A DNA stretch of 64,000 nucleotides from the NCBI GenBank assembly GCA_965203805.1, contig OZ241917.1, forward strand, positions 832,001 through 896,000. Direction: 5' to 3'. The translations under genes and the position numbers were made by a program. Below the pieces are notes generated by a model. The model searched no databases, was not told the DNA's origin, and was given only the letters and a program-made list of their open reading frames with translations. This DNA is from Candidatus Latescibacterota bacterium (GTDB taxonomy: Bacteria > Latescibacterota > UBA2968 > GCA-2709665). How positions within the stretch are numbered: position 1 is the first letter of the stretch; each line of letters starts with the position of its first letter. Shown here piece by piece: positions 13,326-33,835 of this stretch.

Positions 13326-13337
13326 GCCCGCGTTTCG

Positions 13338-14232: not shown

Positions 14233-14292
14233 ACCTTCGATCAGCCTCTATATTATGTACGCTGAGCATAGTTCGAGTAATTTCGCAGTCGT

Positions 14293-14586
14293 TCATACGT
14301 AAAGTACCTCTTTTTCGACGCGCTGTATAAACCCGGTTCGGAGATTCTTACTCAACCGCCGGATATCCACCCTGCATCCAAGGGCTTGCTCCACAAAGAT
14401 GTGAAGCCCGGCCAGATCGTCGAACTTCGGCTCCCGGAGTTCAACAACGAGGTCGACGTCACTCTCATCCCGCTGCGTTCCCGAAGCGTATGACCCGTAC
14501 AGACCGATCCGTCGGACGCCAAATCGACGCTCCATTTCACCTTTATTCTCGGCAAGAAACCTGAGAATGTCTTGTGCTGATCTCAT
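14293..14586 (-). CDS. Minimal nucleotidyltransferase (MntA-like antitoxin), orphan
   Basis: FGVRRIGLYGSYA.G.Q...SDVDLVVE; 97 aa from ATG 14586; no DUF86/HEPN ORF follows. Confidence 0.85.
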   Translation of the reverse strand: MRSAQDILRFLAENKGEMERRFGVRRIGLYGSYASGTQRDESDVDLVVELREPKFDDLAGLHIFVEQALGCRVDIRRLSKNLRTGFIQRVEKEVLYV

Positions 14587-14632
14587 AATTGGTTCCTTAA
14601 TTCGCGCTGGGCAGGTTCTACTTAGAAACACA

Positions 14633-14914
14633 CCTGTCCAAAATCGGTTTCTGTCTTGGACAGCATCTGGTTCACTTCCGCGAAGCAGCGCTTCGACCAA
14701 GGTAGCGTGAGTTTCAAAAAGTGCCTATTTCACGGGCTTAATGGGACGGGAACAGCACAATTATGGCCACTGGATGAGTCACTTTGTTCTTGGACAGCAT
14801 TGCGAAGACGATCGCAACCTGGTTTTCATTATCCGGGTCAAACCCGTCCAAAATCGCCAATTGAAGCCATATTTCGAACCTTATCTCTGAGAATCCGACG
14901 GTTCTTGGACAGCA
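14633..14914. repeat. Cluster of TCTTGGACAGCA direct repeats and GTCCAAAATCG inverted partners
   Basis: TCTTGGACAGCA at 14654, 14788 and 14903; C(T/C)GTCCAAAATCG at 14634 and 14844. Confidence 0.6.
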
Positions 14915-15084
14915 GTGACTTAGAAAATAACATCAGAAACTACGAAACACGCGAAAAAAACGAAAAATCCGTGACTGAATTCAATTACGACCAGGGGCCT
15001 TCGTGGAGCGCATGGCACTGCGCAGGTAGGCGCGTGATTTCCTCTCCATCACTCCCTCTCAATGGGAAGTCGACAAGCCAAGGT

Positions 15085-15141
15085 CACCCTCACCCGGCGC
15101 TGCGCGCCACCCTCTCCCATAGGGAGAGGGTCTGATTGCCA
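15085..15141. repeat. REP-like palindrome (CCCTCACCC family), copy 2
   Basis: Near-identical direct repeat of 14176-14232. Confidence 0.9.
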
Positions 15142-15193
15142 GCCCGAAGGCGCGGCGTTGGAGGCTTTTATGGTCATCACCTACCGCAAGAAT

Positions 15194-15397
15194 TCAACGA
15201 TTCCGTATCCCGCCGGAATGTTCCTCCGGTACTGACAGACCATCTTCTTCGAGCGCGATGATGTATCCAGCGATCGCCTCCCTGATATTGGCAATCGCGT
15301 CCTGTCTCGTGGCCCCCTGACTGACACAGCCGATCAGACTGGGGCACTCAGCCACCCAGTAGCCGTCTTGACCGGGATACAAAACAACCAGTCTCAT
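15194..15397 (-). CDS. HicB-family antitoxin, orphan
   Basis: MRLVVLYPGQDGYWVAECPSLIGCVSQGATRQDAIANIREAI; start trimmed to ATG 15397; no HicA ORF adjacent. Confidence 0.85.
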   Translation of the reverse strand: MRLVVLYPGQDGYWVAECPSLIGCVSQGATRQDAIANIREAIAGYIIALEEDGLSVPEEHSGGIRNR

Positions 15398-15685
15398 CCT
15401 GTCCTTAATTCGCTTTATTGTTCTCGTTCTCTGCGAGTCACTTCGTGCCGACATTCCCGATTTTCTACAGCCGGCGTGAAAGCCAACACAGATGTTCGGA
15501 TGGGCATCCGAGTCTGGTTGAGCGTTTCGAGAACAAATGCAATAATCTTGCCAATACGCGTTCCGATTCGTTGCCGTGGACTGCCTGGCCATTGTGAGCA
15601 ATTTCCACCTGACGACGTCAGAATCGTCGACGCGCATTTGGAGCGCCCGGCCTTGCTGCTGTAACATCACGCAGCAACCCGCATC

Positions 15686-15910
15686 TCACGCGAATTCGTA
15701 GAGAGGCACTGTCGCTGAGGGACGGCGCTCTCCCTCGAGCAGGCTTTCAATCCTTCGGACCGTGTCGAGATTCAGCAGCACATCACCGCAAAAGGAACAG
15801 ATCTCAGCAGGAACATGGTCGATCACGATCACCTCGCCCTTGTGCCGTACGGTGTGGGTGATGTTTTTTGCTTCGTATTCGCCTGGACATCCGTCAATGC
15901 TGCATTTCAT
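15686..15910 (-). CDS. YgiT-type zinc finger (MqsA-like antitoxin)
   Basis: MKCSIDGC...VIDHVPAEICSFCGD, 74 aa. Confidence 0.85.
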   Translation of the reverse strand: MKCSIDGCPGEYEAKNITHTVRHKGEVIVIDHVPAEICSFCGDVLLNLDTVRRIESLLEGERRPSATVPLYEFA

Positions 15911-15978
15911 TGCGATCGTCTCCTTTGGGTCGGAGTAACCCATTTGAGCAGTTTGGGTTCATAGACCACATCTGTACC
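15907..15978 (-). pseudogene. C-terminal scar of a DUF4258-type toxin
   Basis: Reads VVYEPKLLKWVTPTQRRRSQ*, with the stop overlapping the YgiT start (ATGA), like DUF4258 C-termini. Confidence 0.6.
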
Positions 15979-15988
15979 GGCCAATACC

Positions 15989-18900
15989 TCAAGCCCATGG
16001 ACCGATGCCTTCGACGATTTTGCGATACAGGAAATTTCGATCTAACTCCTTCTCGCGTTCCTTGCAGGCTCGTTTCAGTTCATCCCTGTTTAGACGAACA
16101 TGTGCCATCTTCTGTTTATAAACATCGTCCTTCTCCGAGACGGCATCGATCTTTTTTTGAATCCAGGTCCAACTTCGGCGATCCGTTGCACGTAGAAACA
16201 AGACCCAGGCAGCGTACGCGGTTGACGGATCGGCAGCGTCGAGATAGGCGTTCCACCAATGGCGGGCACAAGCCTCAATCCACCTCGAGCGAGCCGACAT
16301 ACAGGTAACGCGGGCATTGGTTGTCTCGAGTTCGCCTTCGGGCCAAGCCTCAGCAATAGGTAGTGAGTTGTTCACGCGGAAACCCTCCAGGACCATGGCA
16401 CGCGCACGCCTCCACGCATAGGGTGACACCCGGTCTTTTTCGATAACCTGGTTGAGCCATTCCAACTTATCGTTGAAAACGGCAGCAATCGCGAGGTCGA
16501 AAAGCGCACGGTCGTCAGTTTGGTCAAACTTCAGTTCCGCGACCTCAACCCTTAGTTCCAGTACCTCTGGAGATTCAGGCACCCGAAAAGCCATATGCAG
16601 AAGGTCATCGACGCCGGCAGCGCCTACGTAACGCGTTCTCAGGGTTTCACTCAGGACACGCCACAACCGTACGCCCCGACCGGGATCGAGAATCAGAAGA
16701 GCCTCACAGAGAGCCAGGTATGCTCCCTCGGCCCGATGCACGCGGTTTTCAAACTCCGCTGTTGGTTCTGAGTAACCATCCAGCCAACGGTCGACATAAT
16801 CTGGTGCAAATTCAATAACGGGCTTGAAGTCCAAATAATCAAAGATTGCTTGAAAGAGTGTAACTCCGTTCCGTCGCGCTTCGTCTATTCGAGTGGCAGC
16901 AGTATCGATTGCACGTCGATGGGCCTGTAAATTCGCGTCCGGATCGAATGCGAGTTGCATTGCCTCCACTTCGTTCTCGCTCCGGCGGGGTGACACTGAA
17001 TATGAAAATGGAAGGAAATCGACCCGCGTCAGATCGACTGATATGTCGGATCCCAAGTCCAAATCGATTAGAGCATTGTCGGTCAAAGCGTTACCAAAAA
17101 TCGCCGCCGCCACTTTTATCTCTGCCGGATCTGCTCCCCGCCTGCGTACAGCCTCGAGCAAACGCCAAGGTGCGACTCTCGGCGCCAACTCTTTGAAGGA
17201 TACGGAAGACGACGCCTCGATCAGAGAATCTGTACCGTAATGGTTGACATAAATGTGTTTGTTGAAACACCACGACCAACCACCATCCAAGAGTTCGCGG
17301 CCAAAACGATTCGTGTCTGCCTGGTTCAAGATGATAAACGCAAGCTTCGTATAATTATCGTCCTCATGCACTGCAAACTTCCGAATCCACGACCACGAGT
17401 ATTCGTCGAGTAAGACAGGTTGGATCGCCAACAGTTTGAGTAAATCACGCCGCTGTTTCCCTAAGGCCGAGTCATACTTTCTGATGAGTGCGGTCGCTTC
17501 CTCGGATGTGAGCGGACGCAAGACATTAGAAAAATCCAGCATAATGTCCGGGAGATTGGCTTGGATCAAAGTTTCGACCTGTTCCCTGCCAGTTAGATTC
17601 CGTATCTCTATCGTCAGGAGCCGGTTGGCGGCAATCAGTTCATTTGCATCGTCAATATCCCGTCCTTTATGGCGAAGGGTATTTGCTGCTTGGGCTTCAG
17701 CTTCTCCTGAAAGGAGAAAATGAGACTTCGCCGAGACCGCACTCCAGTGACGGGAATCGAGCGGGCATGTTTTAAGGAATTTCAGTTTGCGCCGGTCAAG
17801 TTCCGCGAGCAGGTCTGGTGCACATCGAGCGAGAGCCGGCACAAGTTCATCAAAGTTTAGATCATCTTTGGTCCGACTTCGGGATCGGTTCAGTTTCTCT
17901 ACGTTAATTGTCCTCGCCAAGTCGCGAAGTTCGGTAACGAAGTTGCACGACGGACGAAAGTTCGGATCAAGCCACAAATCCCGGATTCTCTCTACACGTG
18001 ATTGTACTGCAAGATCACAGTCCTTAAGCACATCGTGAGCGTGTCGCCTCTCCAGCGGCAAAAAGCTTCGACCAGGATTTGCCGCATAGTCTCGCACATA
18101 GTCGTAGCTACGACCGGTGCTTGGATTCAAATGTGTGGCTGCTTTGTCGTCCGATTCTAAGCCCGTTAACCATAGCAGAAGCGCAGCGACACGCTTGGGT
18201 AGATCCAGTTGGATGCCGGGTTCCGGAATGCGACGACGCATATTGTCTGATAAGTCACGCAACCCTATAGCAGTTTCCTTGGGATCGACTTCATTTAACA
18301 GGCAGAGCCATCTTAGTGCTTCCCAGCATCCACTATTATCTCCGGCGGCAAGGGCAGTGACCGCGGCTTCAAGTGTACCCGTCGCCTTAGACAATGGAAA
18401 GCCCTCAAGAATCAAAGGAACCGTTGATTTAATCTGACCTGGGTGCCTATCGACAAGGTTGAGTTTGACGCCGACAACTGAAATGGTACCGGCAGAGTGA
18501 GTTCCGATCAGTTTCGAGAGATGATCTTCCCTCCACTTTCTTTGTTCATCACTCCGTTTGCGCCGGGTATCAATGTCAAGGTAAACGGTCCCCATCCATC
18601 GTCTTGTACGTTCGACAATTACTTTAAGGGCGGCATCGTCGGTCCGCGGAATTACACGCAGTGCTTTCACGGCCCAATGACGGGCCGACTCCTGAATCTC
18701 TGAGTCCGAATATTCAACAACGTCAAGAAGGGCTCCTGGAAGGCTAGACGCAAGTGCGACGATTTCCTGCCGATGCTTATCGGTTACGTTCTGAGCTTGT
18801 AGCCAAGCTGTAAGTAGTACTCCGGCTTTTGGCAACGCTCCATCGCCAATCTCAACCTGTATTGACACTGCCGCACGAAGAATTTCCGCCGTCTGATCGA

Positions 18901-20632
18901 AGCCCGTGATTGGATCGAGCCATTGCTTAAGTGCGACATCAAGGGATTCGTAGGATTTAGAAGTAGGTTGATCAAGATGATTTAGCAGCGCAAGACCGAG
19001 TGCGTGCGCAATGACCGCTGGAGTAAGTTCAAGGTCACCCATGGCGTTACGAATTGCGAATTTGCCGTCGATTATCTCGCTCAAACGTGCATCGACCGCG
19101 CCTGGAGTTAGGTCAGGGCGACTTACTGTTTCTACCAGCGTACGCAAAGAATAGGTCTGGCTGCCCTCTCGATGTTGATTTGCGATATGCTTCAGCCAAT
19201 CGATCCACTCGTACTCACTAAAAGACCTACCGGCCCGTACGCCAAGGGTGTCACGACCGTATTCCCATAGCAATCGATGCAGGGTTATTTGTCCGGCCTC
19301 GACCAACTGGTCACTAAATTCCACAACAAGATCAAAAAGGCGAGGTGTTCGTGTCAGTTCAAGCACATCCTGATGCATGTCGTCGCGAGTTAAACCCTCG
19401 TATGCGAGCATCTGGTCAAGTTCGCCGCCAGGAGTCATATCGTAGCTCCCCACGGCTATCGGTGAGGAAGAGTCGATCAAGCCCTTAAGCATGGACAGTT
19501 TGTTTCTGTAGTGGTGCTCTCGCGTAGTCACGATCACGCGCGCGCGTCGGGAGAATGACACGCCCTGGAGGACCTTCAGCAGGTTTAACCACGAAACGGA
19601 AGGCTCCTGATTAATTCCATCGAAAAAAACAGTAAGAACGGGACCTTCGTCCAGTGGGCGCTTGAGAAGGCGGGCGAGCCGCCGTTCCCAGTGTCTCGAA
19701 TCTCGAACACCTGTCAACTCATAAAGTCGTCTGGCAAGTAGGCGAATCACGTTGGTTTCGGATACATCAGATACCATTGACACCGCCACTGACGACGGCA
19801 CGACCAATACTATAGGCTGGTCGCCGATGCGGTCTATTAGCCAGTGAAGCGTCGCCCAAGTCTTGCCAACACCTTCGCGTCCAAGGACGACCGCGGGAGC
19901 GTCATCGCTTGCGGATGCACGCCACCAACTGTCTAGGCCATCATGCACTGCCTTGCGCTTTACCTTTTTACTTTTTGAACCTCCTGCGGCGTTCTGTCCA
20001 AGAGCTGCATTCGATTCCTTAGGACAATTCCAGATCTTGGAGAGTTTGTTGTGGGAATCTTTTCGCAATGAATCGAACCCCAGACACCAGGATTCCAGAT
20101 CGCGTCTCAAACTCTCGATCACATTGCCTGATTCCTGCCGCACGGCGCGAGCAGCATCTCTTGCGGCAGTGGTTACGTACTCGCCCACCAATTCAGGAGA
20201 CGACGCACACAATGCAGCAATTGTCGGAATTCCTACTTCAGTCCAATCGATGATCAAAACGGGAACGCCATTTTTTCCGCCATGTTGATCGAGTGATTGA
20301 CGGATCTGTTCGTTTACAGTCCGAGTAGTGCACAAGACCCAAGCTTCCAAGGCCTCATCGCGTTCCAGCGCCTCGTCGATCTCGCCACGCAATTCACGTG
20401 GGGTCAAGCGCGTCGTTTCGCTGTATCTCTTGCATTCAAGGCGAAACCGCCTGCCCCGCTGTCCAGCAGGCCCGGCATCAGCCCCGTGTTGAAAGCCCGA
20501 ACTGGCGACTGCAATAGGCACATCGAGAAGGCGACTGATCAAAGCCGCTACAAGCTTCTCAAACCTGGACGAATCCTGTTCGTTCTGAAGCTCGTGCTTA
20601 AGGTGTCTCAAGGCTGCTGAAACCGCATACAT
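15989..20632 (-). CDS. Mrr-like PD-(D/E)xK nuclease plus STAND NTPase plus long helical C-terminus (Avs4-like defence protein)
   Basis: N-terminal FEKLVAAL...QHGADAG...LECKRY; Walker A GREGVGKT; Walker B VFFDGINQ; VIVTTR; 1547 aa. Confidence 0.7.
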   Translation of the reverse strand: MYAVSAALRHLKHELQNEQDSSRFEKLVAALISRLLDVPIAVASSGFQHGADAGPAGQRGRRFRLECKRYSETTRLTPRELRGEIDEALERDEALEAWVLCTTRTVNEQIRQSLDQHGGKNGVPVLIIDWTEVGIPTIAALCASSPELVGEYVTTAARDAARAVRQESGNVIESLRRDLESWCLGFDSLRKDSHNKLSKIWNCPKESNAALGQNAAGGSKSKKVKRKAVHDGLDSWWRASASDDAPAVVLGREGVGKTWATLHWLIDRIGDQPIVLVVPSSVAVSMVSDVSETNVIRLLARRLYELTGVRDSRHWERRLARLLKRPLDEGPVLTVFFDGINQEPSVSWLNLLKVLQGVSFSRRARVIVTTREHHYRNKLSMLKGLIDSSSPIAVGSYDMTPGGELDQMLAYEGLTRDDMHQDVLELTRTPRLFDLVVEFSDQLVEAGQITLHRLLWEYGRDTLGVRAGRSFSEYEWIDWLKHIANQHREGSQTYSLRTLVETVSRPDLTPGAVDARLSEIIDGKFAIRNAMGDLELTPAVIAHALGLALLNHLDQPTSKSYESLDVALKQWLDPITGFDQTAEILRAAVSIQVEIGDGALPKAGVLLTAWLQAQNVTDKHRQEIVALASSLPGALLDVVEYSDSEIQESARHWAVKALRVIPRTDDAALKVIVERTRRWMGTVYLDIDTRRKRSDEQRKWREDHLSKLIGTHSAGTISVVGVKLNLVDRHPGQIKSTVPLILEGFPLSKATGTLEAAVTALAAGDNSGCWEALRWLCLLNEVDPKETAIGLRDLSDNMRRRIPEPGIQLDLPKRVAALLLWLTGLESDDKAATHLNPSTGRSYDYVRDYAANPGRSFLPLERRHAHDVLKDCDLAVQSRVERIRDLWLDPNFRPSCNFVTELRDLARTINVEKLNRSRSRTKDDLNFDELVPALARCAPDLLAELDRRKLKFLKTCPLDSRHWSAVSAKSHFLLSGEAEAQAANTLRHKGRDIDDANELIAANRLLTIEIRNLTGREQVETLIQANLPDIMLDFSNVLRPLTSEEATALIRKYDSALGKQRRDLLKLLAIQPVLLDEYSWSWIRKFAVHEDDNYTKLAFIILNQADTNRFGRELLDGGWSWCFNKHIYVNHYGTDSLIEASSSVSFKELAPRVAPWRLLEAVRRRGADPAEIKVAAAIFGNALTDNALIDLDLGSDISVDLTRVDFLPFSYSVSPRRSENEVEAMQLAFDPDANLQAHRRAIDTAATRIDEARRNGVTLFQAIFDYLDFKPVIEFAPDYVDRWLDGYSEPTAEFENRVHRAEGAYLALCEALLILDPGRGVRLWRVLSETLRTRYVGAAGVDDLLHMAFRVPESPEVLELRVEVAELKFDQTDDRALFDLAIAAVFNDKLEWLNQVIEKDRVSPYAWRRARAMVLEGFRVNNSLPIAEAWPEGELETTNARVTCMSARSRWIEACARHWWNAYLDAADPSTAYAAWVLFLRATDRRSWTWIQKKIDAVSEKDDVYKQKMAHVRLNRDELKRACKEREKELDRNFLYRKIVEGIGPWA

Positions 20633-25342: not shown

Positions 25343-28342
25343 TCAGTCCAAGATGCTGAAATATCCCCTACGCAACAGGTTCTCACGGGCTTGTCGAGCG
25401 TTTTCACGTACGCTTTCGTCGTCATGATCAAGACCGGCAGTCAGGATGGACCTTGCATCGTTGGTTGGAATGTAGATCACACTGCTCCCAGGTGCAACTT
25501 CTGTAAGTTTGGCGAAACACCTGACCACGTGTGGTGTGTAATCTGGAAGCATAGTTCGCAACGCTTGGGTTGTGTCATGTGGAAGCCAAATGGCAGCAGA
25601 ATCTCCGCTATTGTACATCGGAGTATCAGTCTCGTGCAGAATATCATCTACATGCAGAACCCTTAGATACGCACTCAATCGCCGTTCTGGATGCAGGCAG
25701 TCGGCTTCAAGCCAATTCGAAAACTCCCTCAGTTCCAATGGTTCACCCGTCTGCAGACGCCACTCAAGATAGTCATGTATCCTACACGCAATCATCGTAT
25801 CAAGCGGTTTCTTGGTGTTTTTTAACCTTCGGCCTACATAGCCGAACAGTGCAGCCCAATGCTGTCGGTTACTAACGGTCGCCTTGAAGAATCCGTCCAG
25901 CAGACTGCCGGCGCCTTCCAGCGGTAAAACTCCCCATATGTAGTATTTGAAAAGGTGCTGCCCAAGAATTTCCTTCAACCCATCTTCGAGTGGCTCTCGG
26001 AGTTCCAGGCGTCGCATATTGTCCAGGGCAAATTGATACTCATCGCGAACCCGGTCAAATATCTGTTTTTCAGGATGGCTGTATCGAAGGAAACCTGCAA
26101 ACGCTTGAAGCCACGCCGGAAAGTCGTGTTGAGGAAATACCAAAGACTTGCTAGCAGCCGCCCATCGGCTATCGAGATCGAAAATTGACTGGTAGAGCCT
26201 CCCCAGGATTGCGTATTCCGTAGGCTTCAGTGGACAATCAGATTCAGAATCGAACCTTTTATTCAGAATCGCTTTCATTTCAGTGATTTCCGCATTGTCA
26301 TCGCGTCTGCGCAACCAGAATCCCATTCTGACGAGGTTTTCCAGCGCACGACCTCTAGTCGTATCAATTGTTTCAATCAGCCGGTCATCGCCGTTCGGCG
26401 GTGTCTGTACTTTCTGTTCAAGTAACCAGTCATATTGCGTACAGAGCATGCCCAGGAGGCGCCCCAATTGTCCTCGATTGGAAATCGACACTTCCGAATC
26501 CCGCTCAAAACACGTTTCAATGAAGTCACAGACTGCACGACGCGCCGTATGCCACCTCGGCGTCTCACTAGATCTATCCCAAAGTTGCGCGGTTCCGTAT
26601 GGATGCTCGTCTTGAGGATCTGGATGCGAAATCACCCATTCGCAAAATGGTAACCACTTATCCAGCTTATCGTGATTCTTTCCCTTCACGATGTCCTGCA
26701 TTGCATTAATCATCGCCCGTACGTATATAGGCCGGTGTATGTTATGTCGACTCCCGATCCAAAAATTCAGTCTGGTATCGCTTGGGATGATGCAGTCCTT
26801 GAAGACACTCTGAAATGCTCCAGCCAGGGCTTCCATGGTAATCTCGATGAGCCAGTCGTCCTTATCCCGGTGTTCGTTGTTCCATCTGTTGATGTAGTCG
26901 AGCAGTTTGTGGTCGGTTAAGTTTGCAAGTTCTTGGGGTGATTTCGGACTGCGAGACCTGACAGTTCCCCCTTCGGATTCACTGACACGCGAGTAATTCT
27001 CATCAGTGATCTCATCTGCCGATCTGCTTGATTCAAGTTCTTCGAAATAGTCAGAGTATCTGCCAAATAGTAAGGGTTCGAACGGCCGGAGTTGCCGGTG
27101 ATGGAAATCTCTCTTCTGTTGTGCAAATTCCGATTCGGTAAAGTGCTCGCCCATCCATTCAAGGTAGAATTCCCTTGGAGGACCCTTAAGAATCGCATCG
27201 AAAATCTCGGTGCACTCCTCTTCTGTGAGCAAATCGGATCCGAAATGCTTACACGCCAACCGGACCATTTGTTGAAATTCGTAGCCGTATTGCAATTGGC
27301 TATAGTCGTCGTGCGCTAATATGAGCTCTCTAATAAAAGGACGGGTGTGTTGGCTTAGGTGTAACCCATACAGATGTTGTCTTATACGCTTGAATACATC
27401 CCACCTTTGACCCCTTAAGGCGATGTCAAGGTCTCCGATAAGATCGCTCGATCGTTTCCATACACTTTCGCAGGCGTAGGTCAGCGTATGCACGAGGGAC
27501 TCTCGCAAATCTGGACATTCCCGTCTCGGCTTGGTTAGGCGTGGGCACCATAATTCCAAATAATCCGTGCTCTTTCCACTGGCAAGATCGTCATTGTGCT
27601 TGCCGAGTCGTATCATGTTGTCTGTCGCATTGACTAAGATTAGAGCAACCTTGTACGGTTCCTTTTTCACGAGCGGACGAACTCCCTCGTTAAGGACGTC
27701 CAGGTAAATGGAGTTGAATGGCGGAACAGGCTCAAGTTTGGTCGTCATCATCAAGGTCAAATATTCCTCGTCCCTTGCAGACAGATGCTTGCTGATCTCG
27801 ATATATTTCCTCTTCTTTTCTTGAGCATTCGGGTCCGGCGCAAACTGAACTAGGACGTCTGCAAGTTCCAAGGCAGCATTTGTCTGTTCTTTTGACGTCC
27901 ACTGTGCAAGTATCCTTGCTAACTTGGATGGAACCAACCGGCGCTCAAGCTTTGCATACTCGAGGACTTTCGGTTTGAGTCTTGTAGAATTCGCACCGCT
28001 CAGTTGTAAGACCAGGTCAATCATCTCTTCGTAGACCCTAGGGTTATCTGTCGGCGGGATTTCCAACACAATCTGGATTACGGCGTCAACTATATCGCTT
28101 GGTGCATCTTTACAGATCTCCTTGAGGAATTCAAGCTCAGGCCAGAAAGGACATTGAAGATATCCGCCAGGCAGATGGCTTATTTCCGGTGGGCACGCAA
28201 AACACCCACGATCAGCTAACGGCTGAATCCACAGTGGATTTTTCAAACGTGAAAAGAAGTACTGTCGGTCAGTTTCCTTCTCAAACGACGACAATACCCT
28301 CTCTACTATTTCAGGTGTTGGTTTCTTCCAAGATCGCATCAA
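25343..28342 (-). CDS. Large uncharacterised helical protein, paralogue of the C-terminal ~1000 aa of the 20931-25028 ORF
   Basis: 999-aa ORF; shared blocks FWPEL, KEPYKVA, RQLRPF, RPIYVR, RRAVCDF, LLGMLCTQYDW, TTRGRAL. Confidence 0.8.
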   Translation of the reverse strand: MMRSWKKPTPEIVERVLSSFEKETDRQYFFSRLKNPLWIQPLADRGCFACPPEISHLPGGYLQCPFWPELEFLKEICKDAPSDIVDAVIQIVLEIPPTDNPRVYEEMIDLVLQLSGANSTRLKPKVLEYAKLERRLVPSKLARILAQWTSKEQTNAALELADVLVQFAPDPNAQEKKRKYIEISKHLSARDEEYLTLMMTTKLEPVPPFNSIYLDVLNEGVRPLVKKEPYKVALILVNATDNMIRLGKHNDDLASGKSTDYLELWCPRLTKPRRECPDLRESLVHTLTYACESVWKRSSDLIGDLDIALRGQRWDVFKRIRQHLYGLHLSQHTRPFIRELILAHDDYSQLQYGYEFQQMVRLACKHFGSDLLTEEECTEIFDAILKGPPREFYLEWMGEHFTESEFAQQKRDFHHRQLRPFEPLLFGRYSDYFEELESSRSADEITDENYSRVSESEGGTVRSRSPKSPQELANLTDHKLLDYINRWNNEHRDKDDWLIEITMEALAGAFQSVFKDCIIPSDTRLNFWIGSRHNIHRPIYVRAMINAMQDIVKGKNHDKLDKWLPFCEWVISHPDPQDEHPYGTAQLWDRSSETPRWHTARRAVCDFIETCFERDSEVSISNRGQLGRLLGMLCTQYDWLLEQKVQTPPNGDDRLIETIDTTRGRALENLVRMGFWLRRRDDNAEITEMKAILNKRFDSESDCPLKPTEYAILGRLYQSIFDLDSRWAAASKSLVFPQHDFPAWLQAFAGFLRYSHPEKQIFDRVRDEYQFALDNMRRLELREPLEDGLKEILGQHLFKYYIWGVLPLEGAGSLLDGFFKATVSNRQHWAALFGYVGRRLKNTKKPLDTMIACRIHDYLEWRLQTGEPLELREFSNWLEADCLHPERRLSAYLRVLHVDDILHETDTPMYNSGDSAAIWLPHDTTQALRTMLPDYTPHVVRCFAKLTEVAPGSSVIYIPTNDARSILTAGLDHDDESVRENARQARENLLRRGYFSILD

Positions 28343-28946
28343 GAGTACCTATTCGGCTATATTCGCTTGTTGCGGCGACAAATAAGAAATCCTCGAGAAT
28401 TTTAAAATTCTCCGCCACATTGATATGCACGTTTTCGGAAAAGGCTGGTTCCCGCAGGTGAGTGTTTGCCCTGAAAAACACCTTTGTTTCTTTCCATTTC
28501 TTCATACTGGGAATCCTGTCCTTATCAGAATATCCAAGAAATGTATTGAAAAAGAAATCATCCGCCTGTTGATTTCTGAGACTACCTTCCTTGTGCTTAT
28601 TTATCAGATTCGCAATCATCTCGCATACATTATACGGAATCAGATGTCCCTCTCCCCTCTGTTCCGCCGTGAATAATCCTTGCCCTCCCCATTCATTTCT
28701 CCACTTCTGTTGTAGTTTTCCTACAAGATGACGGTAATCAACTTGAGATGACCGAATACCGGCGACGGTTCGAGCGAGAAAATTCATTAGGTCCCTTGCC
28801 ACATGCGATACGAACGTAATGTATCCCGGTGACCTATCTTTTAGCGAAAGCGCGGCTCCTCTGTATGCGTCGGCGTACACGGGCAGCTCGAGTCTATTAT
28901 CGAGCCAGTCGAATATCTGTTGCTGTGTTTCCGAAAGCACTGTCAT
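28311..28946 (-). CDS. Uncharacterised protein, putative HEPN-like nuclease/effector
   Basis: 211 aa; YRGA..L....P......H.ARDLMN and FF..NTH align with YLGA..I..NPD....NSLRELME and FTHH in the fusion ORF. Confidence 0.65.
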   Translation of the reverse strand: MTVLSETQQQIFDWLDNRLELPVYADAYRGAALSLKDRSPGYITFVSHVARDLMNFLARTVAGIRSSQVDYRHLVGKLQQKWRNEWGGQGLFTAEQRGEGHLIPYNVCEMIANLINKHKEGSLRNQQADDFFFNTFLGYSDKDRIPSMKKWKETKVFFRANTHLREPAFSENVHINVAENFKILEDFLFVAATSEYSRIGTLDAILEETNT

Positions 28947-28952
28947 GGTAAC

Positions 28953-31900
28953 TTACAATCCCATCCGGTATTTGATGTCATAGTTGATGATGAAATCCAG
29001 TTCATCCGCAGTAAAATCGTAGTGGTTCGCCAATGTTTGGTCGATATCGTCAATTGTCGGTTTGCAGGGAGCTACGTTGTATTGATCGACTTCCGCTTTC
29101 CCGTAGACGATGCGTTGTGAGTTCATCTTTAATCCTGCCATCAACTCTTCAACTATACACGATAGCTGTTTTGATAGCTGGCGAAGGCCATCTAATTTTA
29201 TCGGAAATAGTGCAATGTCGGAGGGATAAACATGCCGCGCGTCGGTTAGACTCTTCCAAAGGAAGTAAAAAAGGTTGCTATTTAATATCGAGCAATACAG
29301 CACTGCCAATTCGGAAGATGGCAACCTGAGCTCCGAAATTGTCGTATGGGTCTTGTTGGGTTCCTTTAGGGACCTATAATAAGGGGCAAATGTAAACGTC
29401 TTTATCCAATAACCACCGGCATTGTGGTAATGAACTACGTGAGCGCCACGAAATTGCCGATACGACGCCCAGGGACTTTGATGCGATAACGCCTTGAGTA
29501 ATGCAGAATGCCCAATCGGGTCGTTAACCTTTGGGATACTATAAGCTTGCCTCGATTCCCCCAATTCAAGATATCGCATGTTATAAAAAAGAACCGGGCG
29601 TTCTTCGGAGTACCATGTAATGTAATCGGTCGTATAACCTTTCGCGTTCGTTCCTTTTTTAGATATGCATATTGTATTCCTCTGCATTACGCCGGGAAAT
29701 AAAGCGGCGGGCCTGAGGGCGAAATTGCTTAACCAGATTACGGAGTTTTGGTCGAACAACAATCCTTGGAGCGCTGCCATACGCTGGGCTGCGGTGAGCG
29801 ATATTGGATTGATAAAGCCAAACCTGCCACTCTCGCAAAGGAGCAGATTCGATCGCTCGATCGTAAACGCGTATAGGTTTCCACAATGCTCCGTCGAAAA
29901 GTCGTTTATTGTATATATCGTGCGAACCTTTTTGTATTCGACATACGGTGGATTCCCGATCACCACGTCAAACCCACCCCTTTGCACGATACCATAGAAT
30001 TCCACGAACCAGTGGAATGGCTGGTGGCTTGCACACCATTGCTCGTAGGCAGTTGCGTCGTTTTCTTGGACACCGTATTCACCAGCCAGATATCGGTCCA
30101 ATTGGTCCCGAAGGTCATCGAGCCGTCCACGCAGATTAACCTTTGCTTGAGCGAATACTTGCGCATCCATCTCTTGTTCGGTCTGCATTTTCTGGAACAT
30201 ACGAAAAGCGCGATCAGCGACGTCGGCGCGTTCTTCGATGTCGGGAAGCGATTGTTCCTTGAATAAGTCGCCCCTTACAGCCCGTCTCACATCGTCAAGA
30301 GAGGTAAAGCCAACCAATGTGTTGCCAGCGCGTATGTTGAAGTCGATGTCGGGCAAAGGCTCGATCTGTTCGACGCTTTCCAGTTGCGCAACGAGCTTCA
30401 GGAAGAGGCGCAGTTTGCAGATTTCGACAGCCTCTTCCATTATGTCCACACCATAGAGATTGTTGATAATGATGGACTTGAGAATGAAATATCGCTCGCT
30501 GGGATGAGACTCGACCTGTTTGAGTATCTGCCGGAAGTCGTTCATCTTTTCGGGGCGATGTTTGCGCTTCGATCGCTCTAAATCATCCAGAAGACCGCGC
30601 ATCGCCTCCAGGCACGCGGTGTAGATGGGTTCCAGGATGTTGAGTGCCGCAAACAGGAAGGCGCCGGATCCGCAGGTGGGATCCAGAATCGACACCCCGG
30701 AAATTGCCTTCCAAAAGGCGCGGACCAGTTCAGGTCCCTCGCTCCCCGAAATGACGTCTTGCGCGAATTTCTCAATATCCAGGTTGTACGTAATCAGGTC
30801 GTTGATTTCTATGACCTTACCCGCGGTAAGTTTGGCGTATACTTCCTCGTAGTGGCGCCGACGTGCTACATGCTCGCGCCAGGTTTCGGTTGGCAGTGCA
30901 TAGTCGCCGGTCGCGGGTTCATTCCAGTTGTCGCGTTTTGCGACGTCTTCCAGTCCTGCTGCGATTTCCGAAGGCAGGTCGCGCTTCCGCACAAGGTCTT
31001 CCTTCTTGTGGATATCGTTCGTGATCCCGTGACGGACCGCTTCGTAGAAGTACCGATCCGGCTCCTCCTGCAACAGAGACCACACCCCTCCGCCGGGCCT
31101 GAACGCAATTGGACACGCCTTCTTTGCCTGGTCGAACAGAAACGGAATGATCGTATTGCGGCTGATGTATCCGGTGATGTCCTCTTTGGTGTAGTAGGCC
31201 CCCATCTGCTTCTGGTTGATGTACTTCTCGAAGATGTAGCCGAGCACGTCGGGGTTGATCTCATTGTCATTGCGTAACGGCCGGTCGTCCAGGTGCCACT
31301 GATAGGCGTCGAAAAAATCGAAGATTCGCTCGAACGCTTCATCGGGGATCCGAATTTCCGGATTGTCGTGCTCCAGATCGTGGACGTCGAAAAGGCCGCC
31401 GTTGAGGAATGGCACCTTGCCAAGCAGGCTCACAATCTCCGGGGTGCGGTCGGCCTCCGGTCGCCCCAGCCCGTCATGAAACAGCCTAAGAAGGAATACC
31501 CGATAGAACCTGTTGAAACGCCCGTTTCCATATTGCTGCCGAACCTTTTCGAGACGGTCGCGGAGGTATTCGGTGTTGTTGTCGAGGAATCCGCGTTTCT
31601 GGATGAAGTAGATGAACATCATGCGGTTCAGCATCAGCGAGGCGTACCATTCTTTCTCGGCCAGGTCTCCGATCCCCTCGATGAACCCCAGAAAGGCCTC
31701 GTGTTCCTTCTTGAAGCGGTCGTAGAACCGTTTTGTGACCTTTTCGACGTCAAAGGCTGCCCGAACCCGACCAGATACGTCAACGATAGTCAGGTCGTCT
31801 TCTTCGTCGAGTGTGAAGGCGATGTTTTCGAGCTTCTGAATGAGCCGTTCGCCGGTATCCCCTCGGCGGAACGATTCCGAACGTTGCCGGTCCGGACGGC

Positions 31901-32231
31901 TCGGCTCGCGTTTTACCCACTGCCAGGACTGCTCGCTCTTGTCACGGGTGGTGTAGACGATGATGTGTTCGCGGACCTGTTTGGCGACGGCTTTTTCGAT
32001 CTTCGTTCGGGTAGGATACTCGGGAATCGTCGTCCCGGCGTCAGCGACGTGCTGGTACGCGACCATGCCCCGTTTGTGTGCAACAGCTTCGAGGGTAAAC
32101 GACCGCTGATCGGCTTCGACCACCGTATCGACACCCCCGTGGTCCCAGCCCAGTTCCTCAATGAAGAGCGCACGGAGGTTGAATTCTTCCAGATACGTCC
32201 TGACTTTGTCTCTGTTCAATTTTGAGGGCAC
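28953..32231 (-). CDS. N6-adenine DNA methyltransferase, Eco57I-like, with C-terminal target recognition domain
   Basis: GAYYT, ILDPTCGSGAFL (motif I), LYGVDI, VIGNPPY (motif IV). Confidence 0.92.
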   Translation of the reverse strand: MPSKLNRDKVRTYLEEFNLRALFIEELGWDHGGVDTVVEADQRSFTLEAVAHKRGMVAYQHVADAGTTIPEYPTRTKIEKAVAKQVREHIIVYTTRDKSEQSWQWVKREPSRPDRQRSESFRRGDTGERLIQKLENIAFTLDEEDDLTIVDVSGRVRAAFDVEKVTKRFYDRFKKEHEAFLGFIEGIGDLAEKEWYASLMLNRMMFIYFIQKRGFLDNNTEYLRDRLEKVRQQYGNGRFNRFYRVFLLRLFHDGLGRPEADRTPEIVSLLGKVPFLNGGLFDVHDLEHDNPEIRIPDEAFERIFDFFDAYQWHLDDRPLRNDNEINPDVLGYIFEKYINQKQMGAYYTKEDITGYISRNTIIPFLFDQAKKACPIAFRPGGGVWSLLQEEPDRYFYEAVRHGITNDIHKKEDLVRKRDLPSEIAAGLEDVAKRDNWNEPATGDYALPTETWREHVARRRHYEEVYAKLTAGKVIEINDLITYNLDIEKFAQDVISGSEGPELVRAFWKAISGVSILDPTCGSGAFLFAALNILEPIYTACLEAMRGLLDDLERSKRKHRPEKMNDFRQILKQVESHPSERYFILKSIIINNLYGVDIMEEAVEICKLRLFLKLVAQLESVEQIEPLPDIDFNIRAGNTLVGFTSLDDVRRAVRGDLFKEQSLPDIEERADVADRAFRMFQKMQTEQEMDAQVFAQAKVNLRGRLDDLRDQLDRYLAGEYGVQENDATAYEQWCASHQPFHWFVEFYGIVQRGGFDVVIGNPPYVEYKKVRTIYTINDFSTEHCGNLYAFTIERSNLLLCESGRFGFINPISLTAAQRMAALQGLLFDQNSVIWLSNFALRPAALFPGVMQRNTICISKKGTNAKGYTTDYITWYSEERPVLFYNMRYLELGESRQAYSIPKVNDPIGHSALLKALSHQSPWASYRQFRGAHVVHYHNAGGYWIKTFTFAPYYRSLKEPNKTHTTISELRLPSSELAVLYCSILNSNLFYFLWKSLTDARHVYPSDIALFPIKLDGLRQLSKQLSCIVEELMAGLKMNSQRIVYGKAEVDQYNVAPCKPTIDDIDQTLANHYDFTADELDFIINYDIKYRMGL

Positions 32232-32270
32232 CTGGATGTCCCCTGGTATGTTATGTCCGAACGAGATTGA

Positions 32271-32396
32271 TTAGTGAAGCGGTTCGATTTCGTCGGATCG
32301 CGCGAAGTCGTGCTGGTTCTGCGTTACCAGCCTTCGGACGCCATGGGTTGCTATTTTAGCCAAGTTGAAAAGCGTGTCACTGGCCATCATCGCCAT
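32271..32396 (-). pseudogene. Internally deleted PIN/VapC toxin remnant
   Basis: 41-codon ORF MAMMASDTLF...ATHGVRRLVTQNQHDFARSDEIEPLH overlapping the AbrB stop; keeps the PIN C-terminal T.N..DF motif but not the core. Confidence 0.65.
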
Positions 32397-32649
32397 AGAT
32401 CTCATCCCTATTCCACGACGTCGTCTTTCCAGTCCTGACCGTCACCAGATCCAGCATCGGGACATCGGCGTCTGTCGTCCCCGTCCCGTCCAACTCGTCT
32501 AGATCGGATTCATTATCGGACCTGGGACGAAGAAGGAGGCCGTCAGGTCCTTTCTCAATCTCAAGATGGTCTCCCGGACCTACCCGCAGCATGTTTTGCA
32601 CCCGCTTTGGTAGGGTGACCTGACCCTGTGAACTTATCTTAACGATCAT
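32377..32649 (-). CDS. AbrB/MazE/SpoVT-family antitoxin
   Basis: MIVKISSQGQVTLPK.V...L.VGPGD.LE; antitoxin-like tail WNRDEIY. Confidence 0.88.
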   Translation of the reverse strand: MIVKISSQGQVTLPKRVQNMLRVGPGDHLEIEKGPDGLLLRPRSDNESDLDELDGTGTTDADVPMLDLVTVRTGKTTSWNRDEIYGDDGQ

Positions 32650-32677
32650 GGGGACTTCCTTAGAACCCGATTGAGGG

Positions 32678-32722
32678 TAACCGAACCAGTACTATTGCGT
32701 CAATCCCTTAGCGACGGGTCAT
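32678..32722 (-). pseudogene. 5' scar of PIN toxin with a stop at codon 5
   Basis: MTRR*GIDAIVLVRL versus MTRRFGIDTSVLVRL in the intact PIN gene at 39007-39405. Confidence 0.8.
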
Positions 32723-32942
32723 ACGATTGTCTCCTGAAGTCCTGGAGATCAAATGTCCCACGTCCGCGCCGGATTTTGTGGCGCAACGTCCCGAGACGGG
32801 TACAAACGATGCGCCCCGGCCTCAGGACGAACCCGTCGGGCCCTTCTACGATTTCGAGTTGGTCGCCCGGGCCAACGCCCAGTGCGTTAAGCAATCGTTC
32901 GGGCAACGTGACCTGTCGTTTCGACGTTATTTTGACGATCAT
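32700..32942 (-). CDS. AbrB/MazE/SpoVT-family antitoxin, close paralogue of 39383-39625
   Basis: MIVKITSKRQVTLP...GVGPGDQLEIVEGPDGF...SYDPSLRD, 80 aa. Confidence 0.9.
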   Translation of the reverse strand: MIVKITSKRQVTLPERLLNALGVGPGDQLEIVEGPDGFVLRPGRIVCTRLGTLRHKIRRGRGTFDLQDFRRQSYDPSLRD

Positions 32943-32964
32943 GGATATTCGGCTGAGATTCATC

Positions 32965-33152: not shown

Positions 33153-33160
33153 GAGGTCTG

Positions 33161-33823: not shown

Positions 33824-33835
33824 GAGTATCCCTGA

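Follow-up and report, generated by a model that had tools for sequence, protein, structure and literature searches.

The window, a stretch of 64,000 nucleotides, holds a conserved defence locus beside which toxin–antitoxin (TA) pairs appear to have eroded toxin first, the orphaned antitoxins being kept by selection for a putative role independent of their partners; we assign this account a probability of about 0.8. Purifying selection acts on the orphan reading frames as strongly as on the defence genes around them, also where several lineages descend from a single toxin deletion. TA pairs have landed at two permissive junctions of the defence core, and many separate deletions have removed the toxin genes. 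The toxin-first order would be forced because prior loss of the antitoxin is presumably lethal, and the orphans would persist because they act without a partner.

Architecture of the defence locus

The island has a GC content of ~50% against ~60% in its flanks and was matched in 27 of the 31 genomes searched; the defence locus itself is conserved genus-wide. We annotated the loci of 11 same-genus relatives of the window genome, G000, leaving out four genus members with weak matches at the island (G003, G009, G010 and G014). The core consists of an HKD–SNF2 helicase, a type IIG restriction-modification (R-M) enzyme, giants (one or two) whose C-terminal part is Dsr1-like, and a PsyrA-like gene, the latter being present in 11 of 11 relatives' loci and three of four sister-family loci.

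39007–39625, minus strand: intact AbrB–PIN pair (PIN at 39007–39405, Pfam PIN 27 bits; AbrB at 39383–39625, MazE_antitoxin 38 bits)
34098–37484, minus strand: HKD(PLD)+SNF2 helicase, core (Pfam PLDc_2, SNF2-rel_dom, Helicase_C; PADLOC 'HKD+Snf2', E=3e-49)
32976–34161, no strand: 45-nt repeat arrays (families D1, D2, D4, D5) around a PD-(D/E)XK_3 gene and its duplicated 3' fragment
33161–33544: PD-(D/E)XK_3 gene (Pfam PDDEXK_3, 135 bits)
33835–33928: duplicated 3' fragment of the PD-(D/E)XK_3 gene
25343–32231, minus strand: core defence genes, conserved in the genus and a sister family
28953–32231, minus strand: type IIG R-M enzyme (PADLOC REase_MTase_IIG PDLC03628, E=0, full length; Pfam Eco57I)
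28311–28946, minus strand: 211-aa protein, core
25343–28342, minus strand: 999-aa paralogue, core (PADLOC Dsr1, E=1e-16 in the core block)
13338–14024, minus strand: 228-aa PsyrA/DprA-like gene, end of the conserved locus (PADLOC PsyrA, E=5e-11)

TA modules occupy two fixed slots beside this operon, one between the helicase and the R-M gene and the other between the giants and the PsyrA-like gene. The near-identical metatranscriptome contigs of a single RNA run map to the giants and to the R-M gene; none lies on the antitoxins.

The preliminary description had considered a conveyor in which TA pairs enter intact and lose the toxin first. In such an arrangement the pairs would arrive beside tRNA-Gly, or in the form of integron-like cassettes delimited by repeats, and grow older with distance. 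As described, the sole intact pair lies closer to the tRNA than any other module (its PIN toxin is 90–98% identical to the relatives' intact orthologues), and a 67-nt repeat follows both the MNT and the HicB genes. However, two host-like genes (39675–41956, 62% GC) separate the island from the tRNA, the scanned island ORFs gave no match to an integrase family (all those of at least 60 aa are accounted for), the locus is vertically conserved with genus-wide synteny, and the modules show fixed slots and no age gradient. The intact pair is itself an old paralogue of the copy at 32700 (dS 0.69), found at the same position in G012. The 67-nt repeat was rejected as an attC-like site: it is a REP-like palindrome with ten genomic copies, eight of them within one 20-kb stretch elsewhere, and lies in either orientation relative to genes. 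We regard such a conveyor as highly improbable.

Toxin remnants and the order of loss

The orphan antitoxins and the sequences flanking them are as follows.

32700–32942, minus strand: AbrB/SpoVT-type antitoxin 2 (AbrB2), orphan (Pfam, 42.6 bits); paralogue of the antitoxin at 39383
32672–32722, minus strand: PIN scar (PIN2), TAA at codon 5, ~16 codons remaining, then joined to the AbrB1 ribosome-binding site
32377–32649, minus strand: AbrB/SpoVT-type antitoxin 1 (AbrB1), orphan in G000 (Pfam MazE_antitoxin, 42.5 bits)
32271–32405, minus strand: PIN scar, a 44-codon ORF holding the first 8 residues and residues 121–149 of a 157-aa PIN
15989–20632, minus strand: 1547-aa protein, family not recognised; its 3' end takes the place of the DUF4258 gene body
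15916–15966, minus strand: 3' scar of a DUF4258 (BECR-fold) toxin, 17 codons, with an ATGA overlap onto the YgiT start
15686–15910, minus strand: YgiT-type zinc-finger antitoxin (MqsA N-domain type, without HTH), orphan (TIGR03831, 33 bits)
15194–15397, minus strand: HicB-like antitoxin, N-terminal domain only, orphan (Pfam HicB_lk, 25.9 bits, cut-off 27)
14629–14917, no strand: 289-nt MITE inserted 42 nt 5' of the MNT start (terminal inverted repeats, 9-bp target duplication)
14293–14586, minus strand: MNT (MntA-like nucleotidyltransferase) antitoxin, orphan (Pfam PF01909 NTP_transf_2, 46 bits; NCBIfam MntA, E=6e-10)
14180–14296, minus strand: ATGA-coupled 38-codon ORF in the expected place of HepT, running into the REP-like repeat

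Tallying five modules over 12 genomes gave 13 intact pairs, 29 antitoxin-only instances, none toxin-only and three with both genes degraded. Kin are not independent, and these counts overstate the number of events. Some 13 distinct deletion junctions lie behind the losses and involve microhomology, the 45-nt repeat (which forms several junctions in relatives) or a neighbouring gene. No intact toxin without its antitoxin was seen in the loci examined, and the tally bears out the earlier proposal that the toxin goes first. A toxin-seeded scan of metagenome contigs for DUF4258–YgiT pairs found full-length toxins followed by a full YgiT in 45 of 45 evaluable cases, a full YgiT beside 11 damaged toxins uncut by a contig end, and no intact toxin lacking a full YgiT. 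An antitoxin-seeded scan of genomes found the DUF4258 match full-length at 15 of 39 loci, partial at nine and absent at 15.

The ORF at 32271–32405 is 62% identical to the relatives' 157-aa PIN (tblastn E=1e-5) and, aligned with G001 and G008, shows a ~320-nt internal deletion and a further 1-nt deletion; the two surviving ends were described correctly, their length of 41 codons was not, the ORF having 44. AbrB1 is intact in seven of seven genomes and is followed by an intact PIN1 in four relatives (G001, G005, G008 and G011). Downstream of AbrB2, the scar frame reads MTRR-stop, in agreement with the reported stop at codon 5, then GIDAIVLVRL where the intact copy has MTRRFGIDTSVLVRL, and breaks off after about codon 16; PIN2 is retained after AbrB2/3 in G002, G011, G012 and G015. 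The deletion junction CTCACCA|TCTGGTT is common to G000, G001, G005, G006 and G008, and AbrB2 was subsequently lost in G001. The 45-nt repeat has replaced the native promoter, operator and Shine-Dalgarno sequence of AbrB2, which has 80–81% nucleotide identity to 39362–39626; a promoter/operator-like palindrome (39626–39690, operator motif 39648–39661) stands before the intact pair.

In the second slot, the 17-codon scar coupled by ATGA to YgiT is, as had been noticed, a DUF4258 C-terminus: it is 82% identical to residues 92–108 of the intact G004 protein (E=5.5e-4 against the whole genome), and an intact DUF4258 (69 bits) precedes YgiT in two relatives, G004 and G006. The junction between the scar and the 1547-aa gene is identical in G000 and G001; this gene, without a Pfam or PADLOC match, is present in G001 and split over several reading frames in G011. 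YgiT is an intact 74-aa ORF in nine of nine genomes, its first Cys replaced by Arg in G008.

The 97-aa MNT ORF is likewise intact in nine of nine genomes (its GS motif reads GP in G011), and the reported absence of a HEPN ORF after it held: homology to G001, the one relative with an intact HepT (58 bits) after MNT, stops 3 nt beyond the MNT stop codon, and the G001 HepT used as a tblastn query found no match at E≤1 anywhere in G000. The 38-codon ORF after MNT is without toxin similarity. In G004 and G006 a 60-aa ORF follows MNT. The MITE upstream has five more genomic copies at 97.6–98.3%, and its insertion site is empty in G001. In two Caldilineaceae MAGs, MNT and YgiT are adjacent in reversed order, without toxins.

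HicB also stands without HicA, as first read: neither the gene nor its surroundings give a PF07927 match at E≤10, and HicA is absent from the locus in G000 and five relatives. The HicB family match is weak, and the best PDB matches are HicB chains at E=0.005. The cognate toxins had been described as reduced to scars; the demonstrable ones are a single scar of DUF4258 and two of PIN, HicA and HepT scars being unrecognisable.

The antitoxins may not be orphans at all, serving instead a resident toxin in trans, such as a distant paralogue or, for AbrB2, the intact PIN at 39007, or an unrecognised cis partner, as in an MNT–YgiT two-gene operon or with the 60-aa ORF after MNT. In G000, AbrB2 and the intact pair's antitoxin share 85% identity, and the sole operator-like site stands before that pair; distant PIN, HepT and DUF4258 paralogues (29–35% identity) occur in several genomes, and the toxinless Caldilineaceae arrangement fits an MNT–YgiT operon. 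On the other hand, no close copies of the lost toxins were found in the orphan-bearing genomes searched: the best PIN2 match is at ~30% identity in four of five orphan genomes, and HepT has matches at 29–31% in two of five and none in the other three. The complete genome G008, with orphan AbrB2 and MNT, has no PIN2 or HepT match at E≤1e-3, G000 is without HepT as above, and the 60-aa ORF belongs to no Pfam family. Identities of ~30% are far from those of cognate pairs, and cross-neutralisation between type II TA systems is unusual at that level. We consider these trans and cis partnerships, taken jointly, unlikely.

Selection on the orphans and their possible roles

Maximum-likelihood ω was 0.24 for orphan AbrB2, 0.23 for MNT and 0.30 for YgiT, rejecting ω=1 with 2ΔlnL of 58, 94 and 31, respectively, although some tree branches in the MNT and YgiT sets may precede toxin loss. 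Pairwise NG86 values were 0.08–0.34 for MNT, 0.10–0.69 for YgiT and 0.02–0.39 for AbrB2/3, the HicB median was 0.22, and the neighbouring defence genes had medians of 0.12–0.24. Copies descending from the common ancestral PIN2 deletion gave ω of 0.14–0.29 (binomial p 2e-3 to 8e-8), the values for MNT and YgiT where a single common deletion has fused them were 0.17–0.34, and copies sharing one ancestral toxin deletion retain intact ORFs at dS 0.4–1.0. The 36 antitoxin ORFs listed contain no stops or indels.

Could these genes nonetheless be functionless leftovers of neutral decay caught midway, with disabling mutations yet to come? Such two-step decay is the general pattern reported for Photorhabdus (PMC13617665); AbrB2 has lost its promoter and operator and, later in G001, was itself lost; HicB is frameshifted in G012; and AbrB1 is weakly constrained in the paired state (ML ω 0.49, pairwise 0.43–1.08). 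These points are outweighed by the ω estimates, by the open frames kept since the common deletions, and by the adjoining 16-codon PIN2 scar, which gained stops over the same span (in G000 and G006), making neutral decay quite improbable. Since the scars are toxin remnants and ω rejects neutrality, neither of two outcomes named beforehand as contrary to the preliminary description, scars dissimilar to toxins and neutrally evolving antitoxins, was encountered. Of the selected antitoxin bank proposed there, the selection stands; its purpose is read from domain content.

MNT is an enzyme and has no DNA-binding domain; YgiT is a zinc finger that binds toxin and has no HTH. Judging by these domains, the most likely role of both would be neutralising related plasmid- or phage-borne toxins, as anti-addiction or immunity. 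On anti-addiction and the decay of ccdO157, Saavedra De Bast in 2008 and Mine in 2009 reportedly found that plasmid toxins can be neutralised by chromosomal antitoxins from the same family, and that chromosomal toxins degenerate with their antitoxins remaining active. Unlike CcdAB, the families here are MNT/HepT, DUF4258/YgiT and AbrB/PIN, and neutralisation is putative.

A role in DNA binding or regulation appears at least as likely for AbrB2, because constraint falls mainly on the DNA-binding half: in the orphans the AbrB fold (aa 1–45) has ω of 0.10–0.19 and the toxin-binding tail 0.16–0.57, the tail being indistinguishable from neutral in four of six pairs, which does not favour a neutralising role. 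AbrB1 and AbrB2 might be viewed as domesticated regulators that control transcription of the type IIG gene downstream, akin to R-M controller proteins. Within the genus the AbrB genes are always co-directional with the R-M gene and just upstream of it, and the constraint on the fold fits. Yet the sister family has adjacent helicase and R-M genes without AbrB, and the system therefore works without it; orphan AbrB2 lost its own operator; the remaining operator-motif matches are chance ones in coding sequence or sites before distant VapBC pairs; and the idea fails for MNT and YgiT, neither of which has a DNA-binding domain. We think domestication for R-M control unlikely as an explanation of the locus, and prefer toxin-first erosion with selected orphans.

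Relation to published systems

The abundance of orphan antitoxins is already in print (PMC7192599), as is toxin-first decay (PMC13617665); the locus is therefore a new example with added detail, clear and datable, of a described process, not a new kind. Belot et al. (2026, Mol Biol Evol, PMC13617665), who cite Mine 2009, report that chromosomal type II TA systems, sitting in small high-turnover spots, erode in two steps, the toxin being the first to be truncated or pseudogenised and rarely surviving alone. The Photorhabdus counts in that report, 185 pseudogenised in the toxin only, 186 in both and eight in the antitoxin only, resemble our 29 toxin-lost, three both and no antitoxin-lost instances. 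That report reads the pattern as relaxed selection, and the word 'purifying' is absent from its main text; here, in contrast, purifying selection has continued to act on the orphans since a toxin deletion that is shared and can be dated, and the spots lie on either side of a single conserved defence operon, in a phylum without cultured members.

Horesh et al. (2020, NAR, PMC7192599) describe Klebsiella antitoxins often without a functional toxin, frequently in their original context, for which they propose anti-addiction, cross-talk or new functions. Theirs is a population survey of one species complex, whose passages on orphans contain no selection test; the present analysis includes one, and compares interspecies orthologues with mapped junctions.

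A further parallel concerns a giant ORF of the locus.

20931–25028, minus strand: single 1365-aa ORF of DUF4258, DUF2283 and giant (C-terminal part resembling Dsr1, PADLOC E=1e-15)
24771–25028, minus strand: DUF4258 domain (18–23 bits, under the Pfam cut-off)
about 24621–24767, minus strand: DUF2283 domain (Pfam, 59–63 bits)

DUF4258 is here read through into its partner, as had been observed, the partner DUF2283 forming the N-terminus of the 1365-aa ORF: the stop is gone at a T9 run (24777–24785), where G001 has TTCTATTGA with a stop. Gerdes (2025, mBio, PMC11980606) places DUF4258 as a toxin family in the RelE/ParE superfamily and gives 17 DUF4258–MqsA fusions; the window likewise has DUF4258 with a YgiT/MqsA-type finger as well as a DUF4258 read into its partner. 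Compared with the fusions given there, the partner in the window is DUF2283, itself fused to a ~1200-aa giant with a Dsr1-like C-terminal part, and the fusion arose from a change in homopolymer length.

Gene content of the island and its toxin scars

The genome of the window (5.87 Mb, 59% GC, single contig) carries an island across ~14000–39700 in which GC falls to 46–57%, against ~60% in both flanks. The island genes lie on the minus strand throughout, and two host-like ORFs of 62% GC (39675–41150 and 40880–41956) intervene between them and a tRNA-Gly.

Features of the island and its tRNA-side flank, from high to low coordinates
42190–42265, tRNA-Gly
39625–39007, minus strand, intact AbrB-PIN pair
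between this pair and the helicase, minus strand, two small ORFs of no assigned family
37484–34098, minus strand, HKD+SNF2 helicase (PADLOC 'HKD+Snf2', E=3e-49)
between the helicase and AbrB2, minus strand, PD-(D/E)XK_3 gene flanked by 45-nt repeat arrays
32942–32700, minus strand, AbrB2
32649–32377, minus strand, AbrB1
32231–28953, minus strand, type IIG restriction-modification (R-M) enzyme (PADLOC PDLC03628, E=0, full length)
low-coordinate side of the R-M gene, minus strand, 211-aa protein, then 999-aa protein
minus strand, 1365-aa paralogue of the 999-aa protein, beginning with DUF4258 and DUF2283
15989–20632, minus strand, 1547-aa protein of no family (no Pfam or PADLOC match)
YgiT, HicB, MITE and MNT, in that order
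14024–13338, minus strand, PsyrA-like gene (E=5e-11)

The 999-aa and 1365-aa paralogues, hereafter the giants, each give a match to Dsr1 in its C-terminal part (E about 1e-16). The 1547-aa protein possesses a P-loop-like GREGVGKT motif; a copy with 62% identity is present in the same-genus relative G001, and in another relative, G011, it is split over several frames. Within 13300–33200, near-identical metatranscriptome contigs (one RNA run, word share 0.10) covered only portions of the R-M gene, the giants and the gene for the 211-aa protein; three further, DNA-like runs of the same organism were found besides the RNA run.

Every element of the antitoxin library listed in the preliminary description is present in the sequence. 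Its proposal that intact antitoxins stand beside toxins reduced to scars holds for one DUF4258 and two PIN scars, which are demonstrable, but not for HepT after MNT or HicA near HicB, neither of which is recognisable. The MNT (PF01909, 46 bits; NCBIfam MntA, 39 bits against a cut-off of 60, E=6e-10) carries GSYASG...DVDLVVEL, the GS...DxD motif of nucleotidyltransferase antitoxins. No HepT (RX4-6H HEPN) gene adjoins MNT in the window, and no HepT remnant was found after it. The HicB match is weak (25.9 bits vs a cut-off of 27; PDB HicB chains at E=0.005–0.009), and its ORF comprises the N-terminal domain only, without the DNA-binding domain. HicB stands alone in 5 genomes and is frameshifted in G012, HicA being seen in none of these loci; as no PF07927 match at E<=10 was obtained at the locus in G000 (the genome of the window), G001, G004, G006, G012 or G013, a former HicA partner is only assumed.

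The YgiT zinc finger (TIGR03831, 33 bits; four Cys) is preceded by what is left of a DUF4258 toxin, its final 17 codons, with 82% identity to the intact orthologue (E=5.5e-4 genome-wide), and the ATGA on the YgiT start is kept, as first described. The VapBC-like modules at 32377 and 32700 retain the antitoxin half only. After AbrB1, a 44-codon ORF retains the two termini of a 157-aa PIN (PIN1; E=1e-5), following a ~320-nt internal deletion plus an additional 1-nt deletion; beside AbrB2, ~16 first codons of its PIN (PIN2) are left, with TAA at codon 5. Both remnants agree with the initial description, save that the ORF after AbrB1 has 44 codons and not 41; the PIN Pfam model, run over the whole genome, missed these two short scars, which were detected only with relatives' proteins. 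The pair at 39007–39625, in which an AbrB/SpoVT antitoxin adjoins its PIN, is VapBC-like and, as claimed, intact.

Module insertion and toxin deletion in relatives

The DNA query 13300–33200 found matches in 27 of 31 genomes (G000 included), among them all 14 other genus members. We annotated the loci of the 11 strongest-matching relatives (G001, G002, G004, G005, G006, G007, G008, G011, G012, G013 and G015) and left out the genus members G003, G009, G010 and G014, which gave weak matches only. The helicase, R-M, giants and PsyrA-like gene form a syntenic core in the annotated loci, and the small genes sit in two slots, the helicase–R-M gap and the gap that separates the giants from the PsyrA-like gene. 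In the sister family (n=4), helicase and R-M abut in three genomes, a broken PD-(D/E)XK_3 gene alone intervenes in the fourth (G023), and no AbrB or PIN lies between helicase and R-M in any of the four; it follows that the toxin-antitoxin (TA) modules were inserted later, within this genus. In G011 and G002, a copy of the ~14 first R-M codons is still encoded in the PIN2–AbrB1 spacer, which shows that the AbrB1-PIN1 module inserted into the 5' end of the R-M gene. Defence-operon junctions serve here as landing pads for TA modules.

The toxins missing from the window are found in its relatives at the corresponding positions. HepT in G001 (PF01934, 58 bits) has an ATGA overlap with the MNT stop; a 108-aa DUF4258 (69 bits) precedes YgiT in the intact pairs of G004 and G006; PIN1 (157 aa; 37 bits in G001) follows AbrB1 in G001, G005, G008 and G011; and PIN2 follows an AbrB2/3-type antitoxin in G002, G011, G012 and G015. 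A second MNT, partnered by a PF05168 HEPN, makes up a fifth module; only G008 has it intact, and in five genomes the HEPN survives as an N-terminal or C-terminal scar. Counting each module per genome over 12 genomes, with two AbrB2/3 copies for G000 and with relatives that are not independent, we obtained 13 intact pairs, 29 antitoxin-only modules (one of them the second MNT of G002, whose N-terminus may be shortened), no toxin-only module and 3 with both partners degraded.

The toxin losses represent many separate events, with ~13 distinct junctions, some possibly nested. In the PIN2 deletion, CTCACCA abuts TCTGGTT at an ACCA microhomology; this junction is identical in G000, G001, G005, G006 and G008, which points to one ancestral event; the PIN2 junctions of G013 and G004 differ from it. 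PIN1 was lost by the internal deletion in G000, at a 45-nt-repeat junction common to G002 and G006, and in G012 by yet another event. HepT and DUF4258 were deleted together in G008 and G011, from the MNT-stop ATGA to the YgiT-start ATGAAA, such that YgiT exactly occupies the former HepT position. A second junction type, retaining 15 nt, is common to G002, G005 and G013, and in a junction that G000 and G001 have in common the DUF4258 body is replaced by the 1547-aa gene.

The preliminary description had also entertained a conveyor in which TA pairs enter intact and lose the toxin first. We rejected a conveyor fed from the tRNA: host genes intervene between tRNA-Gly and the island, no integrase-family match was obtained among the scanned ORFs, the TA slots are fixed, and the intact pair, an old paralogue by its dS of 0.69 to the 32700 copy, occupies the same place in G012, where the defence operon is deleted. 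A repeat (D6) after MNT and HicB was likewise rejected as an attC or integron-like cassette boundary; it is a short REP-like hairpin in either orientation relative to genes. This element, CCCTCTCCC..GGGAGAGGG + GCGCGCAGCGCCGGGTGAGGGT (window 14169–14235 and 15079–15145), has 10 genomic copies, 8 of which lie within 20 kb at genome 5.381–5.400 Mb, alongside two HicB-like genes and a PIN.

Several further features of the loci were observed. In G012, the closest relative (locus L018), the entire defence operon is gone, from HicB through a 150-aa ORF; the intact AbrB-PIN pair is kept beside the same oxidoreductase gene, its antitoxin 100% identical, as expected if an addictive pair alone withstands deletion. 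A conserved 60-aa ORF without Pfam family stands at the expected HepT place after MNT in G004 (locus L014, 11999–12181) and G006 (locus L017, 3140–3322). The 45-nt repeat TTCGTAGT...TTTCGCG occurs at 32976–33164, 33614–33824, 33905–34161 and 14918–15034 and at ~25 other genomic sites; the last SNF2 helicase codons (…RIICSMGLVDYENREKTRKE) come from it, and it is present at several deletion junctions in relatives, where it may drive rearrangements. The PD-(D/E)XK_3 nuclease gene has a duplicated 3' fragment at 33835–33928. The MITE (14629–14917; 289 nt, terminal inverted repeats CACACCTGTCCAA..., 9-bp target duplication) lies upstream of MNT, 42 nt from its start; five more copies are present in G000 at 97.6–98.3% and many in relatives at ~90%, and the G001 site is empty. 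A 43-nt hairpin-forming repeat, ATGGCCATT...AATGGCCAT, is found downstream of the helicase region (37781–37823) and just past the tRNA-Gly 3' end (42124–42166), the copies being 79% alike with no tRNA sequence within.

At a T9 homopolymer (24777–24785) the DUF4258 stop is lost, and toxin, antitoxin domain and giant share one frame; an independent 13.9-kb contig from a DNA-like run agrees with zero differences, and the homopolymer may be subject to slippage or phase variation. In G000, G001 and G004 (window 20931–25028; L014 6135–9989; loci L009+L010) the giant is fused at its N-terminus to DUF2283, a nominal antitoxin; DUF2283 also occurs unfused, without DUF4258 and 56 nt upstream of a 999-aa-type giant, in G004, G005, G008 and G013. 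This arrangement suggests a working link between DUF2283 and the giant defence proteins.

Selection on orphan antitoxins

The antitoxin ORFs are full length in 36 of 36 cases, with no stops or indels (9 MNT, 9 YgiT, 7 AbrB1, 11 AbrB2/3).

Omega estimates for the antitoxins (genes of 74–97 codons; ML under a GY codon model; 2dlnL vs omega=1 is approximate, with fixed topology and three kappa values)
MNT: pairwise NG86 omega 0.08–0.34; ML omega 0.23 (orphans); 2dlnL 94
YgiT: pairwise NG86 omega 0.10–0.69; ML omega 0.30 (orphans); 2dlnL 31
AbrB2/3: pairwise NG86 omega 0.02–0.39; ML omega 0.24 (orphans), 0.07 (paired); 2dlnL 58 (orphans)
AbrB1: pairwise NG86 omega 0.20–1.08; ML omega 0.49 (all); 2dlnL 13.5

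The sharpest test comes from copies with one inherited toxin deletion, since their entire divergence accrued in the orphan state; the locus is in this respect a clean natural experiment, several species inheriting the same deletion, so that the antitoxin's time alone can be read from dS. AbrB2 copies sharing the deletion (G000, G005, G006 and G008) gave omega 0.14–0.29 at dS 0.41–0.98 (binomial p 2e-3 to 8e-8), and in that time stops arose in the 16-codon PIN2 scar of G000 and G006. Omega was 0.17–0.34 for MNT and YgiT of the fused operons and 0.25 for YgiT between G000 and G001. Neighbour medians were 0.12 (helicase), 0.17 (R-M), 0.18 (giant) and 0.24 (PsyrA-like), with 0.22 for HicB. Constraint on the orphan antitoxins is thus somewhat weaker than on paired copies, yet matches that on the surrounding working genes, bearing out for AbrB2, MNT and YgiT the earlier expectation that their evolution is not neutral.

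While alone, the antitoxin has remained under purifying selection, and queries for the missing toxins recovered no close cognate from the genomes searched. PIN2 found only ~30% identity matches in G004, G005, G006 and G013 and no match in the complete genome G008; the G001 HepT found 29–31% identity matches in G005 and G013 and none in G002, G008, G011 or G000. Judged by these homology searches, the orphans do not owe their persistence to a resident cognate toxin; only in G000 could AbrB2 act on an intact paralogous pair, the one at 39007–39625. That pair has the sole operator-like site in the G000 genome; exact matches to the AbrB operator motif CCTTACTWTATTAT in G008 and G013 fall within a conserved large gene, and one-mismatch sites lie upstream of distant VapBC-like pairs in G004, G005 and G006. 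AbrB2 orphans show omega 0.10–0.19 in the DNA-binding half vs 0.16–0.57 in the tail, and their promoter, operator and Shine-Dalgarno are displaced by the 45-nt repeat in five genomes. MNT has no DNA-binding domain and keeps GS...DxD in 8 of 9 copies; YgiT consists of the zinc-finger domain only and keeps four Cys in 8 of 9 copies. Given the roles of these residues in MntA (enzyme) and MqsA (toxin-binding finger), the simplest retained function for MNT and YgiT would be to neutralise incoming toxins in trans.

We assign a probability of about one in four to a further, tentative model: the orphans may constitute a selected, heritable immunity set attached to the defence operon, in which the coupled MNT-YgiT operon would guard against plasmid- or phage-borne toxins of HepT and DUF4258 type. 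The precise ATGA-to-ATGA deletion would have created a two-antitoxin operon, retained by several species, in which translation of YgiT is coupled to that of MNT; in another phylum, too, these two orphan families adjoin without toxins. Purifying selection continuing without a resident cognate toxin would be indirect evidence for such an anti-addiction role. If this model is true, antitoxin-only modules are a distinct class of defence gene and not TA debris. Concrete pairs can be named for neutralisation: the window's MNT, YgiT and AbrB against the relatives' HepT, DUF4258 and PIN.

Orphan antitoxins and toxin loss elsewhere

The literature already describes both toxin-first erosion and orphan antitoxins. 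From Klebsiella, 2253 orphan antitoxins are reported, with anti-addiction or new functions suggested (Horesh et al. 2020, PMC7192599), and DUF4258 is described as a BECR-fold toxin family of which fusions to MqsA exist (Gerdes 2025, PMC11980606). Within a limited literature search, supplements excluded, we did not meet purifying selection on orphans after a shared toxin deletion, an antitoxin-antitoxin operon, or a tie of orphan antitoxins to one defence operon. The constraint described here bears on the debate over whether orphan antitoxins are debris or working genes.

A YgiT-seeded scan (one genome per species; 39 loci, many phyla) found the upstream DUF4258 match full-length in 15, as scored by length with internal stops disregarded, partial in 9 (mostly the 3' end) and absent in 15. 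A toxin-seeded scan of metagenome contigs yielded 69 loci: a full YgiT followed 45 of 45 full-length DUF4258 toxins with sufficient downstream sequence, four further toxins being cut by contig ends, and no intact DUF4258 without YgiT was seen among evaluable loci. Eleven damaged DUF4258 genes away from contig ends (six 5'-truncated, three interrupted by an internal stop, two broken) were accompanied by a full YgiT. From both scans, the window's scar type is common in the DUF4258-YgiT family, the toxin 3' end being kept because the antitoxin's translation signals lie there.

In two Caldilineaceae MAGs (L044 1501–2028; L053), relatives of YgiT and MNT with 64–74% identity adjoin in the opposite order, wedged among housekeeping genes without DUF4258 or HepT; the L044 YgiT is 12 codons short.
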